The translations under genes and the position numbers were made by a program. This document shows, piece by piece, positions 1,657 to 42,247 of a stretch of 64,000 nt of DNA; the stretch's first letter is position 1, and the number at the start of each line of letters is the position of its first letter. Location: the NCBI GenBank assembly GCA_964016885.1, contig OZ024740.1, positions 53,754,001-53,818,000 of the forward strand, in the 5' to 3' direction. This DNA is from Eledone cirrhosa. Taxonomy: Eukaryota. The notes beneath the pieces were generated by a model. It was not told the origin of the DNA, did not search any database, and saw only the letters and a list, made by a program, of their open reading frames with translations.

Positions 1657-2745
1657 TCTATATATATAAATGAAAATATAGAAATATATATATATATATA
1701 TATATATATATATATATTAAAATAACAGATTAAAGTCCTCCTTCTTTGTCGTCGTCCTTTTCATTTTCTCGCCCACCCGAGGCAGCCCCTCGGTCCTTTG
1801 TAGCCTCAGTACCTCCACCCCATCCCCTATTCTATGATAGAATTGGCCGACTCCGCTTTTTATAGCAGTTGTGACAGACCCCAGATACTTGCTTTCTTAT
1901 CCGATGGCTGCTCCATTTCCGTGCTTTCTACATTTCTTAGTGGTTTCTCTGCTTTAATTTCTCGTATATCAGTATTTATTTTTGGGGTGGGGTGGGGTGG
2001 GGTATTCTGAATTAATTTTCCGTATCAAATTTTTCATATACCTAGTACGAGCATTTATGTAGTTTGCACTAGAATTTTTGTATCGTAGCGGCACCCTTAG
2101 AGATAGTATTAGTAGTATTCATTTTCGGGATTCTGAATTATTATTTCGTATTAGTTTATGTTTTGCACTGGGTGGTTGCTGGCCTTGTGCCTAGGGTAGA
2201 AACATTTATTTCGAATTAGTTTCGGGACTCTGAATTATTATTTCGTGATAGTTTCTTTAGTATTTTGGCCCCTACTTGTTGACCTGTCACCGTAAGATAT
2301 ACTCGGTTGATTAGTACTAACTCTTAAAATGGTCTCATTACAATTCCGTCCCACCTAGTAAACTTTTCTATAGTTTAGCAGTACCAATGAGAGACTTGAT
2401 GATTGTCGTTAGGGAATAGTAACCAGAAATTGTTTTTTTTTTTTTTTTGTATTTATAACTTTCTTGGTATTCTTCTATATATTTACTCCATATTGATTTA
2501 CTTATTGTTTCGACCTCCTCCCCCTCCCCCTCCCTAGTATACTTACTTGTCCTCCTGCCCTGCTGTAGTTGGCACTATCAACGCACGACTGCGTTTCCTC
2601 CACTCCCTCTCTCTCTCCCTCTTTCTTCTACTGGCAGGTTCAGCTACCCCTTCCTTCCACAAATTGCCATGATAGAATTATGTGTCTCAACAACAAACTT
2701 TTGACCAATCCTTGTGACAATCACTTTTACCATATATGGAATTAC

Positions 2746-2842
2746 ACCCCTGAGAAGCTCGGCTATTCATATACCAGGATAAAATTTTTTTCATTTAGTT
2801 CAGAATTAGCCGTCGAAACGGCTTGAGCTCAGCCGTCGGGGT
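2746..2842 (+). ncRNA. Type I hammerhead motif (family B), core partly degenerate
   Basis: ACCC-CTGAGAA-..CGGCTA[long loop]TAGCCGTC-GAAA-CGGCT(TGAGCTC)AGCCG-TC-GGGGT; GUC triplet with a 6-bp stem III, but G8 is missing in this copy. Confidence 0.6.
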
Positions 2843-3188
2843 CCTACTCGTTCCTATTACCCACTCTACTACCCTAAGTATTGAGTACTTTGGTGCGTTA
2901 TGGTCCACCTGGTTCCTTACCACATTTCGTTCGTTTTATATATATATATATATATATATATATATATATATATATATATATATATATATATATATATGTA
3001 CATATATACACATATATATCAAAATTAATATAAAAATGGCTTCTACAGGACTAGAACTATTCATTCGAACGAAATCCTCACACACACACACATATATATA
3101 TATATATATATCCAGGGAGTTTAAGGTGAAGTTACCGTAGGTGAGAACTCGATGTTTAGTTTCACGTCAGTGTCATTACTACAACAGA

Positions 3189-3273
3189 GGTCCGATGAGC
3201 TTTTGATTCCAGAGTCGGGCCAGATTGACATGGATCGAACCGTGAGCTGATCAATAGTGAAACGCGCGTCACC
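3189..3273 (+). ncRNA. Type I hammerhead ribozyme, U4C core variant
   Basis: GGT-CCGATGA-GCT.TTGAT[insert]ATCAA.AGT-GAAA-CGCGCG-TC-ACC: stem I GGT/ACC, palindromic stem III ACGCGCGT, GUC triplet. Confidence 0.7.
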
Positions 3274-3307
3274 AACCAATAAACGTCTTTATATATATAT
3301 ATATATA

Positions 3308-4030
3308 AAGAATTAGTATATCTACCAACATATTTATACAGAAGTATACTTACGCTAGCAAGATATACGTTTTGACTTAGTAACTTTGTGGTTCAATACA
3401 AAAATGTAGAACAATTATATGAAAGACGTAAAATAAGAAAATTCTAATAATTAACTTAATTTCTTAAGTTTCACTCCAACTACTTAGTTTCTGAAAAGGG
3501 ATATACATAGTGTTCAAAACTATGGAGAATCCTTTCTTCATCAGGGAGTCAATTCTCGGCTAAGATCCCTGGCGATAGGCGGACACAGGGAGATCATACA
3601 AAAATAATTCAGTGAATGGAAAAAAAGCAAGCGCCGACTAAATTTCAAGACACTGAAAATTTCACTGCATTCCTGGTCAGTGGCAAATTTAAAAGAATCA
3701 ATCACGTGACATCGAGGTTAATCAGTGAGGAGTAGGGTTTTAAAAAGTCAGTAGCCAAAATGTTACTATGAACCATAGTAGTAATTTAGGCAAATTTTTG
3801 CTCAACAAAATAATATGGAGGTAATTATAAAGAATTAGTATATCTACCAACATATTTATACAGAAGTATACTTACGCTAGCAAGATATAGGTTTTGTCTT
3901 AGTAACTTTGTGGTTCAATACAAAAATGTAGAACAATTATATGAAAGACGTCCCCTTTCAGAAACTAATTAGTTGGAGTGAAACTTACGTAAGTTAATTA
4001 TTATAATTTTCTTATTTTACGTCTTTCATA
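3308..4030 (-). mobile_element. Family C non-coding element: 522-nt head-to-tail unit plus inverted arm
   Basis: GAATTAGTATATCTACC occurs at 3310 and 3832 (period 522); 3952-4030 is an inverted arm; HHR-like CTGATGA on the minus strand near 3539-3545. Homologous to 14147-14957 and 55891-56316. Confidence 0.8.
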
Positions 4031-4055
4031 TATATATATATATATATATATATAT

Positions 4056-4146
4056 CGTTTCTGAATTTGTTTAGCAAGATTCTTTATCTGAAATCGTGTG
4101 TTGAAACCGATATTGTTATACATGACCCTCCCAAAGTATAACAATA
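4056..4146. mobile_element. Family D PLE two-arm remnant
   Basis: Antisense tail arm (rc of 55750-55815) joined to sense arm CATGACCCTCCCAAAGTATAACAA-(TA)n. Confidence 0.8.
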
Positions 4147-4171
4147 TATATATATACATATATACATATAG

Positions 4172-4416
4172 TTTGAAAGTGAACAACACAAAATATAACT
4201 ACTCCATTACCAAAGGTTTCTTGATCCCAGACAATAATAATATACGTGTGACGACCGATCCAGACGTATATTATTATTGACGTATATTATTATTGTCAGA
4301 ATCCTTTGGTAATGGAGTAGTTATATTTTGTGTTGTTCACTTTCTAATTAAATAGCTGTGTTCTATACATAGAGCACTCTTTTTTTCCTTTGTTTTTCCT
4401 TCGAAATTTCCTAACA
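4172..4416. mobile_element. Family E fold-back remnant
   Basis: Inverted arms GAAAGTGAACAACACAAAATATAACTACTCCATTACCAAAGG / CCTTTGGTAATGGAGTAGTTATATTTTGTGTTGTTCACTTTC plus a tail; homologous to 42000-42247. Confidence 0.8.
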
Positions 4417-39996: not shown

Positions 39997-40043
39997 AACA
40001 CCGATGATTCCAGACATTCGTCTGGAAGAAACAATTGTCGGCA
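39997..40043 (+). ncRNA. Hammerhead motif, family N (U4C), stem I disrupted
   Basis: CCGATGA-TTCCAGAC(ATTC)GTCTGGAA-GAAA-CAATTG-TC; perfect 8-bp stem II. Confidence 0.6.
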
Positions 40044-40201
40044 ATTAAATGTATTAAACTAAAATGTTATTGTTTTATATTTTGTATATGTATATATATA
40101 GAGAGAGGTAGAACACTGGAAGGTAATATCCGTGGTGGTAGAGTACTCAGTCCATGGGACGACTTTGTTGGAGTAGTAACACAACAGTTAGTTCACCATA
40201 C

Positions 40202-40239
40202 CGAGAACAATTGTTTCACTTTAGCGGATCTTCAGCTCG
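40202..40239 (-). ncRNA. Minimal type I hammerhead (family H) in fold-back 40104-40310
   Basis: CGAG-CTGAAGA-TCCGCTAAAGT-GAAA-CAATTG-TT-CTCG; GUU triplet, weak stem II. Confidence 0.7.
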
Positions 40240-40481
40240 TACTGGTGAAGATCCTCTAAGGTGAAACAGTTGTTCTCGGTATGGTGAACTAGCTGTTGAG
40301 TTACTACTTCTATATATATATACATATATATATATATATTCATATATATATATATATATATATATATATATATATATATATATATATATATATGAATATA
40401 TATATATTCATTTATATATATATATATATATATATGTGTGTATTCATATATATATATTCATATTTCTTCATATATATATAT

Positions 40482-41035
40482 TCGGCGGAATTTACATTTT
40501 ACATTTAACAAACAAACACCTATTGACTATAAAGGAGTCGTGTCCGAGACATGCGCCATATCTACTGTAGATTCCAATGAATAGATCCGAGCATTTTATA
40601 TCAACTAAAAATTGATTGACATATATATATATATATATTTAAAATAAACACATGAAACAATCACAGGGGATAATTTGTAAAGTGTGTAATCACACACAGC
40701 TAGGTAGGTAATTAATTAAAGTTTAACTAGATCTTCAAATATTACCTTTTAAAAAATTATTAATCCTCCTTGTATATATTTCATTAAAGAAATAGATTTC
40801 ACTAAAAATCCGTAAAGTCACAGTAGTTAAATCTTAGATCATCGAAAAGGAGGAACAAATAACTGTCTGGGTTTACGCATCAAATGCAAACCTGCGAGTG
40901 ACCCGTCGCACGTGCTATAATTAGTTACCTACCTAGCTGTGTGTGATTATACACTTTACAAATTATCCCCTGTGATTGTTTCATGTGTTTATTTTAAATA
41001 TATATATATATGTCAATTAATTTCTAGTTGATATA
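40482..41035. mobile_element. Family K fold-back (arms ~120 bp)
   Basis: 40597-40718 is inverted at 40918-41035, with a tail to the left. Confidence 0.8.
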
Positions 41036-41050
41036 TATATATATATATAT

Positions 41051-41875
41051 AAGAATATGAGAATAAACATGCTGCGTGGTTGCTAATGGGTTACATATGA
41101 ATAAAGTTAGTCCTTCATCAGTGATCTTCCAACCATCATTGGTATTTCATCGCTTTAAAGACCATATACCTCCGGTTGGTGCGAGCAACGGCTAAAAAGG
41201 TCGTTGGGACACGTAAATAAAGGGGACACGAGAGTGTAAACAAACAAAGATGGTGAAGCAACGAAAAGTGAGGAAGAAGGAGTCAAGTCCCAAATTTCCA
41301 TGAATATAAGTTCGGTGAAATCGTGAACGAGAGAGAATAAAGACCATCAAACCTGGTTGGAATGTGAGCAAGGAAGGAGTTCCGTACAGGTCTAACGGGA
41401 GGAAGAAGGGATCTAGTCTGTGAATTCGGTGAACGTAAGTTCTGTGAAATCGTAGACGAGAGAGAGAAAACTACGATTTCACAGAACTTACGTTCACCGA
41501 ATTCACAGACTAGATCCCTTCTTCCCCCCGTTAGACCTGTACGTAACTCCTTCCTTGCTCACATTCCAACCAGGTTTGATGGTCTTTATTCTCTCTCGTT
41601 CACGATTTCACCGAACTTATATTCATGGAAATTTGGGACTTGACTCCTTCTTCCTCACTTTTCGTTGCTTCACCATCTTTGTTTGTTTAAACTCTCGTGT
41701 CCCCTTTATTTACGTGTCCCAACGACCTTTTTAGCCGTTGCTCGCACCAACCGGAGGTATATGGTCTTTAAAGCGATGAAATACCAATGATGGTTGGAAG
41801 ATCACTGATGAAGGACTAACTGTATTCATATGTAACCCATTAGCAACCACGCAGCATGTTTATTCTCATATTCTT
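41051..41875. repeat. Family L palindrome: 405-bp arms, 15-nt spacer
   Basis: 41051-41455 / 41471-41875 with about four mismatches; a diverged single-arm relative lies at 61712-62090. Confidence 0.95.
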
Positions 41876-41886
41876 ATATATATATA

Positions 41887-42247
41887 GGTAAGTTATTCTG
41901 GGTTGAATCGGAGGTAACCACAGTAGGTAAGGTACTCAATACATAGCAGAGTATAAAAGTTTTAATATAGAAGAGCTTCTACAGGACTAGAACTGTTTCA
42001 TTCTGTATCCCAGACAATATTAATATACGTCTGCATCGGTCATCTTTGCCTGATAACCGATCCAGACGTATATTAATATTGTCTGGGATCCAGAAACCTT
42101 TGGTAATGGCAGACAATATTAATATACGTCTGTATCGGTCATCTCTGCCTGATAACCGATCCAGACGTATATTAATATTGCCTGATATCCAGAAACCTTT
42201 GGTAATGGAGTAGTTATATTTTGTGTTGTTCACTTTCTAATTAAATA
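41887..42247. mobile_element. Composite of a family M arm (41887-42003) and family E arms
   Basis: The first part is the reverse complement of 52319-52432; the rest is homologous to 4172-4350 with internal reiteration. Confidence 0.8.

Follow-up and report, generated by a model that had tools for sequence, protein, structure and literature searches.

Two-family units in the window

The stretch analysed here (the window) comprises 64,000 nt of contig OZ024740.1 of Eledone cirrhosa (assembly GCA_964016885.1, positions 53,754,001 to 53,818,000), and belongs to a 3.0-Gb TA-rich genome in which dozens of repeat families are seated in (TA)n tracts. Families A, B and N are the 3′ parts of autonomous Penelope-like elements (PLEs), each with its own open reading frame (ORF). 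An initial annotation of the window, whose letters for families A, B, E, H, M and N are kept here (other family letters are new), had described four insertions whose arms come from different families. All four units were confirmed as real, each being arranged head-to-head and joining families that have separate sets of copies genome-wide, and the outer ends of all four are 3′ ends in TA (Table 1).

The four joins are of different types. The 20-nt A arm meets B, as had been proposed, with an overlap of 3 nt (AGT), and B upstream of this join at 1737 has a different continuation in each of the 29 other copies listed. The junction near 16993 between H and an element bearing a hammerhead was likewise borne out; the partner is family P, and three filler nucleotides lie between the arms. 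H/P is the weakest of the four joins because the filler ATA could be a TA remnant. The A/N join, which had been placed at 38400 with N running to 38690, does lack a TA spacer; its position was corrected to 38404, the A boundary being set there because A continues differently in 29/29 other copies listed, the end of N was moved to 38724, and a 16-nt N fold-back between the arms had been missed. The switch from M to E at a TTC beside the hammerhead GAAA of both families was found at 42001, where TTC corresponds, in reverse complement, to GAA within the E motif GAAA and is 1 nt away from the GAAA of M. The M/E join itself is co-oriented (both minus), and it is the subsequent E plus arm alone that makes the unit head-to-head. 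None of the four joins is a nested insertion, because the missing part of an interrupted arm is never found on the far side of its partner, and no second copy spanning any of them was found among the 40 candidates scored per search. Elsewhere in the window a lone 17-nt A short terminus lies between TA runs (16648–16664); abortive arms of this size occur alone (two found).

Table 1. Arms and pieces of the four two-family units (pLTR, pseudo-long terminal repeat; UTR, untranslated region; long, tailed 3′ terminus; short, tail-less 3′ terminus)
Feature	Positions	Strand	Description
Family A arm, 20 nt	1717..1736	-	short terminus in TA; last 3 nt AGT common with B
Family B arm, 5′-truncated	1734..2936	+	3′ UTR and pLTR of autonomous PLE; long terminus in TA
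Family H arm	16955..16989	-	short terminus in short TA run; followed by filler ATA at 16990-16992
Family P arm, 5′-truncated	16993..18112	+	CTGATGA core at 17927; near-long terminus in TA
Family A PLE, 5′-truncated autonomous	36406..38404	-	329-aa C-terminal ORF part (38403-37414), 3′ UTR, pLTR, short terminus
16-nt inverted copy of N 38530-38545	38404..38419	-	fold-back or remnant of N inner arm; 1-nt A overlap, then CG
Family N arm, 5′-truncated	38422..38724	+	3′ end of autonomous PLE; long terminus in TA
Family M arm	41887..42003	-	long terminus in TA; truncated beside own hammerhead GAAA
Inverted E piece, 44 nt	42001..42044	-	overlaps M by TTC
Family E arm	42041..42247	+	local 99-nt duplication (42011-42109 / 42110-42208); core altered to CTGATAA; short terminus in TA
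Insertion cluster in one TA tract	36299..42250		about 214 nt in related species between window positions 36130 and 42268

Elements and hammerheads of the joined families

A family A copy elsewhere in the genome (L135) carries a single ORF of 644 aa with a YRDD motif and a C-terminal Cys-rich region containing ...YIG (motifs read by eye). The protein has no significant match in Pfam or PDB; its Atlas neighbours at 0.95–0.96 carry PF26215, and GIY-YIG is present in 17% of one cluster. By these motifs family A fits the endonuclease-bearing (EN+) class of PLEs, with a reverse transcriptase (RT) followed by a C-terminal GIY-YIG endonuclease in a single ORF, and the A pLTR and tail found in L135 immediately upstream of the ORF show the pLTR-repeat arrangement of EN+ PLEs. 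RT and endonuclease (EN) frames lie upstream of the family B 3′ end in sense orientation at two loci (L032 and L058), the end of an EN frame lies upstream of the N 3′ end at L030, and one locus connects H with an ORF.

Hammerhead cores are present in E, M and P, in which no ORF was seen; E and M are families of short pLTRs with hammerheads, and P appears to be a family of tandem type I hammerhead monomers. In E, M, H and P a putative type I core lies on the sense strand near the 3′ end, in CTGANGA...GAAA clusters of 15–40 copies each. The best 150 of 177 Rfam matches included no hammerhead family and only chance matches of microRNA type. Candidate hammerhead-like cores also occur in N (38496–38530) and A (36449–36478, minus), in which CTGA is replaced by CCGA or CAGA.

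These findings bear on two consequences drawn in the initial annotation. A trans-acting RT does not follow from A/N or A/B, because both partners carry ORFs and two ribonucleoproteins (RNPs) could each use their own RT. Ribozyme shuffling is unsupported because no intact or amplified chimeric hammerhead was found: on the minus strand at 42001 the E stem is joined to the M GAAA without a CTGA core, E's own core there reads CTGATAA, and none of the four chimeras has spread among the scored candidates.

The window also holds other repeats. An abundant SINE-like repeat of approximately 185 nt, which ends in TA and often lies inside PLE copies, is represented by 294 fragments in 1.46 Mb; it occurs in the window at 9023–9184, 10771–10960, 19709–19897, 28485–28687, 47618–48014 and 54234–54426, and a piece of its 3′ end was found within the family B 3′ UTR. 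A 24-nt unit forms a tandem array at 27975–28295 with short TA runs between the units, and a LINE reverse transcriptase fragment (Pfam RVT_1) at 62283–63205 (minus), read as RTE-like, is unconnected with the joins.

The orthologous site in a related species

A contig from a related species, with about 9% flank divergence, matches window positions 35963–36130 and 42268–43098, with about 214 nt between the two matches. The alignment indicates that the whole 6-kb cluster, including A/N and M/E, postdates the split from that species, and the cluster at 36.3–42.25 kb was built up, once the two species had separated, by successive insertions into a single short tract. The initial annotation had proposed a comparison with orthologous empty sites; no longer allele was seen in this contig, and its empty site fits simultaneous and sequential arrival of the arms alike.

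Same-family units come from one template

Ordinary units were characterized in a census of 1.464 Mb, annotated in seven blocks including the window (1.40 Mb outside it) by means of a library in which natural copies serve as exemplars. That 95 of 528 5′ ends meet unannotated DNA shows this library to be incomplete, so that census counts are lower bounds. Each of the 15 families in the census blocks has two fixed 3′ termini about 45–140 nt apart. Of 100 same-family two-armed units, 91 combine one long and one short terminus, and single arms end at the long terminus in 28 cases and at the short one in 32. Rare variants are common to both arms of same-family units in 246 of 375 instances (69 units), and six of 122 informative units differ at three or more polymorphic sites, compared with 65.6 expected for random copies. 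The shared variants, the low discordance and the regular terminus pairing together indicate that one template with two fixed end points is the default origin of an inverted unit, and the six discordant units against 65.6 expected imply that two RNAs are not the default. This default matches the two start sites described in vitro for an anole element (PMC11167929) and also agrees with the self-priming idea of PMC3846280, as far as the accessible parts of these papers go.

Two-family joins recur and are mostly head-to-head

The initial annotation had called for a genome-wide count of hetero-family junctions. The census and the motif searches described below show that two-family joins are a real recurring class biased to head-to-head orientation, present on many chromosomes. 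Beside 149 same-family direct head-to-head pairs in the census (132 outside the window), curation left eight two-family units in the 1.40 Mb outside the window, either direct head-to-head or of three or four pieces (G/V, A/M, K/K2, A/c71-like, B/K2, S/K-like, K2/unknown ORF and A/unknown ORF). The window is enriched (four units in 64 kb) partly since it was chosen for its joins and the library was seeded from it. About four direct co-oriented and four direct tail-to-tail hetero joins were also present in the census, mostly with an intact 3′ end. Where TA separates neighbours of different families, 86 are tail-to-tail, 48 co-oriented and four head-to-head. Two-family joins are a distinct, orientation-biased minority beside the one-template same-family units.

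Exact-motif searches extended the class beyond the census. Family A on the minus strand and B on the plus strand within 110 nt gave 23 pairs, including 11 direct joins and one nested case (20 of the 23 sequences were inspected; the other three had TA or CA in the match), and the co-oriented A-plus/B-plus search gave 63 pairs, eight of them without a TA run of three units at the A end. M/B, K/A and H/B searches yielded 13, 7 and 5 matches, of which 20 of 25 were inspected and six proved to be further direct joins. A scan for short arms gave 15 same-family and six hetero candidates of 52, and only the window A/B join among the hetero ones was clearly real. Automatic microhomology lengths were not used, since chance extension of the local alignments made them unreliable; an unmasked self-BLAST was dominated by microsatellite matches.

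Several candidates were discarded. L301 and L319 are accounted for by nested insertion. They were left out of the count of outer termini given below, together with L325 (complex), L324 and L332 (intact adjacencies) and TA-containing matches. The census candidate c71-like/W was dropped since the W terminus was located on the left, and H/ORF, K/K2 at C3a 18823, B/B-ORF in L059, an E-like pair and G-like/ORF were dropped on inspection as same-family or unresolved.

Whole two-family units A/S and S/K-like also occur as mirror-image duplications (L142:210-3002; G000:C2:80001874-80003649), which suggests that units can be duplicated by fold-back at TA tracts, either in the course of insertion or later.

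Origin of the two-family joins

The most likely origin, in which our confidence is about evenly balanced, is that a later element inserts beside an earlier one and deletes the target-side TA spacer together with part or all of the neighbour's inner arm. One RNA would be reverse-transcribed by target priming at a TA tract, the far DNA end would be resected, perhaps with the help of a hairpin formed by the older inverted unit, and the 3′ end of the cDNA would anneal into the neighbour by microhomology, which would remove the TA spacer and some or all of the neighbour's inner arm. Intermediates exist: B adjoins A units with an inner arm that is complete or trimmed by about 6, 50 or 70 nt (L339, L340, L342, L344), about 10 nt of A inner arm is kept in four A/B joins, and A is joined to an M unit with only about 17 nt missing. 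Annealing of later cDNAs into older neighbours would be expected to leave such a continuum of trimming.

The outer termini point in the same direction. Among direct hetero joins derived from the genome-wide motif searches, long and short termini are paired in seven of 17 (p=0.63 against 0.5; p=4e-7 against the 91/100 of same-family units), and in census and locus hetero units in five of eight. Since terminus pairing is random genome-wide, hetero joins are, as a class, unlikely to be ordinary single events in which one arm was exchanged. No correlation of arm divergence was seen in 20 direct joins (rho -0.04) or in 98 TA-separated neighbours (-0.10), compared with 0.46 in 106 same-family units, a value that partly reflects shared source variants. 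The initial annotation had inferred that one integration event can use RNAs of different families; passive later deletion is indeed disfavoured, but sequential trimming gives the same picture, and intermediates such as L340, L342 and L344 exist.

PLE 5′ ends are also joined without TA to LINE-like, transposase-like or unique DNA (L041, L033, L073, L012), which is consistent with target-side deletion. A and B arms often begin with G or GG before a similar AGT(T/C)..CAGAA (L302, L305, L309, L311, L344), the G or GG possibly being a copied cap at homologous RNA 5′ ends, and CAGAA recurs as joining microhomology in A/B arms.

Several observations weigh against a later insertion that trims its neighbour. 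Head-to-head joins in the census outside the window are eight direct to four TA-separated, compared with about four to 48 for co-oriented ones (p=4e-5, the 48 including the window's four), although this bias drops to p=0.12 when three-piece units are counted as trimmed neighbours. Direct A/B joins are several-fold commoner head-to-head (11/23) than co-oriented (8/63, p=0.001), and the head-to-head excess exceeds what simple spacer loss predicts. All four window units pair a long with a short terminus (chance 1 in 16), and the A and N arms meeting at 38404 show equal private divergence (17/1999 and 3/303), both being equally young. Significantly discordant arms were found in 0/20 direct joins compared with 13/98 TA-separated neighbours, a comparison of low power with arms so short. 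Finally, several inner remnants are short though 180 to more than 1300 nt of arm must be lost.

A tentative alternative, somewhat less probable, is that two PLE RNPs with different RNAs extend both 3′ ends of one double-strand break in a TA tract and that the cDNAs, in some cases having first folded back over a short distance, pair through a few bases that they share; a trans-acting RT would not be needed. The excess of head-to-head direct joins, the regular termini of the window units and the matching ages of A and N all speak for such an event. So does the position of the breaks, six of the 11 direct A/B joins breaking at A's usual 5′ end or inversion centre, 154–163 nt from the long terminus, although this clustering is also explicable by the CAGAA motif common near both RNA 5′ ends. 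According to the accessible text of PMC11167929, the anole PLE protein, a predicted dimer, cleaves each of the two strands and extends both, and de novo LINE-1 insertions in opposite orientation from two RNAs are described in the parts available of PMC11702581 and PMC13174262. Moreover, the discordant same-family units (about one clear case, L127, among the 6/122) would be about as many as random two-RNP events would give at the rate seen here. Random pairing of termini and uncorrelated arm ages genome-wide argue against two RNAs in one event, and the trimmed-neighbour intermediates show that a one-RNA route operates. We nevertheless give the two-RNA explanation considerable weight, because random pairing permits two RNPs that each choose a start site and because the head-to-head excess is large. 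It is accordingly conceivable, with the same reserve, that PLE RNPs of different families, even of different clades, prime both ends of one TA-tract break, and that about 1 in 20 two-armed insertions derive from two unrelated RNAs. If true, this would be genomic proof that PLEs prime at two ends, and it would physically tie the non-coding hammerhead families to those PLEs by which they are mobilised.

It is unlikely that two finished, independent insertions were fused later by deletion, after a break at a TA tract or palindrome centre and repair by microhomology. Microhomology and templated fillers are also left by end-joining repair, random terminus pairing fits, and the V2/B join in the C4a block, with both 3′ ends trimmed, and one four-piece B/K2 unit are of the kind that such deletions would leave. 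Small later deletions should, however, yield mainly tail-to-tail fusions because TA-separated hetero neighbours are mostly tail-to-tail and head-to-head ones rare. That single clear doubly 3′-trimmed join, with the four-piece unit, stands against 86 TA-separated tail-to-tail neighbours, and tail-to-tail pairs with two or fewer TA units amount to only 4/90, most with an intact 3′ end. Assembly errors collapsing TA tracts between repeats are very improbable, given specific overlaps and fold-backs, occurrence on many chromosomes and joins that lie inside arm sequence rather than TA, even though no contig or read bridged the M/E join among those searched, in which the raw reads were one reduced-representation run from another individual that left the unique flank uncovered.

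Comparison with known systems

How the inverted arms of PLEs arise is an open question, for which this genome offers countable tests. Should even some of the two-family joins have arisen from two RNAs, PLEs would be capable of priming at the two ends of a break with different RNAs. Should the joins be sequential, insertion of a PLE would often remove part of an adjacent palindrome, with consequences for repeat annotation and for the reading of such chimeras as cross-mobilisation. No paper on two-family PLE arms was found in a literature search that left subscription journals largely outside, and the supplements of PMC8557442 could hold cases.

The accessible portion of PMC8557442 describes an inverted 5′-truncated arm, a one-sided tail and (TA)n targets for EN+ PLEs, and with PMC3846280 the likeness extends to head-to-head arms, hammerhead pLTRs and 5′ microhomology. 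The inverted arms published in those parts are same-family, whereas a minority of units here are two-family, and PMC3846280, in the portion available, reports no cross-mobilisation between its two PLE types. Non-LTR retrozymes, viewed as non-autonomous PLE derivatives in the available part of a recent preprint (bioRxiv 10.64898/2026.07.22.740005), resemble the putative tandem type I hammerhead monomers of P and the short hammerhead pLTRs of E and M, in which no ORF was seen; that work, as far as the same part goes, concerns origin and distribution rather than hetero-family joins.

LINE-1 two-RNA and twin-priming events, as presented in the accessible parts of PMC11702581 and PMC13174262, share the opposite orientation and the microhomology or few filler bases at the join. 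They differ in being de novo events or bounded by target-site duplications, whereas both flanks here are (TA)n, and a single event is not demonstrable from one genome because TA targets hide any target-site duplication. The closest biochemical parallel is the anole Poseidon element PAc in vitro, for which the available text of PMC11167929 describes two internal RT start sites that define the tail and the cutting and extension of both strands; one RNA species was used there, whereas the units described here join the arms of two families.

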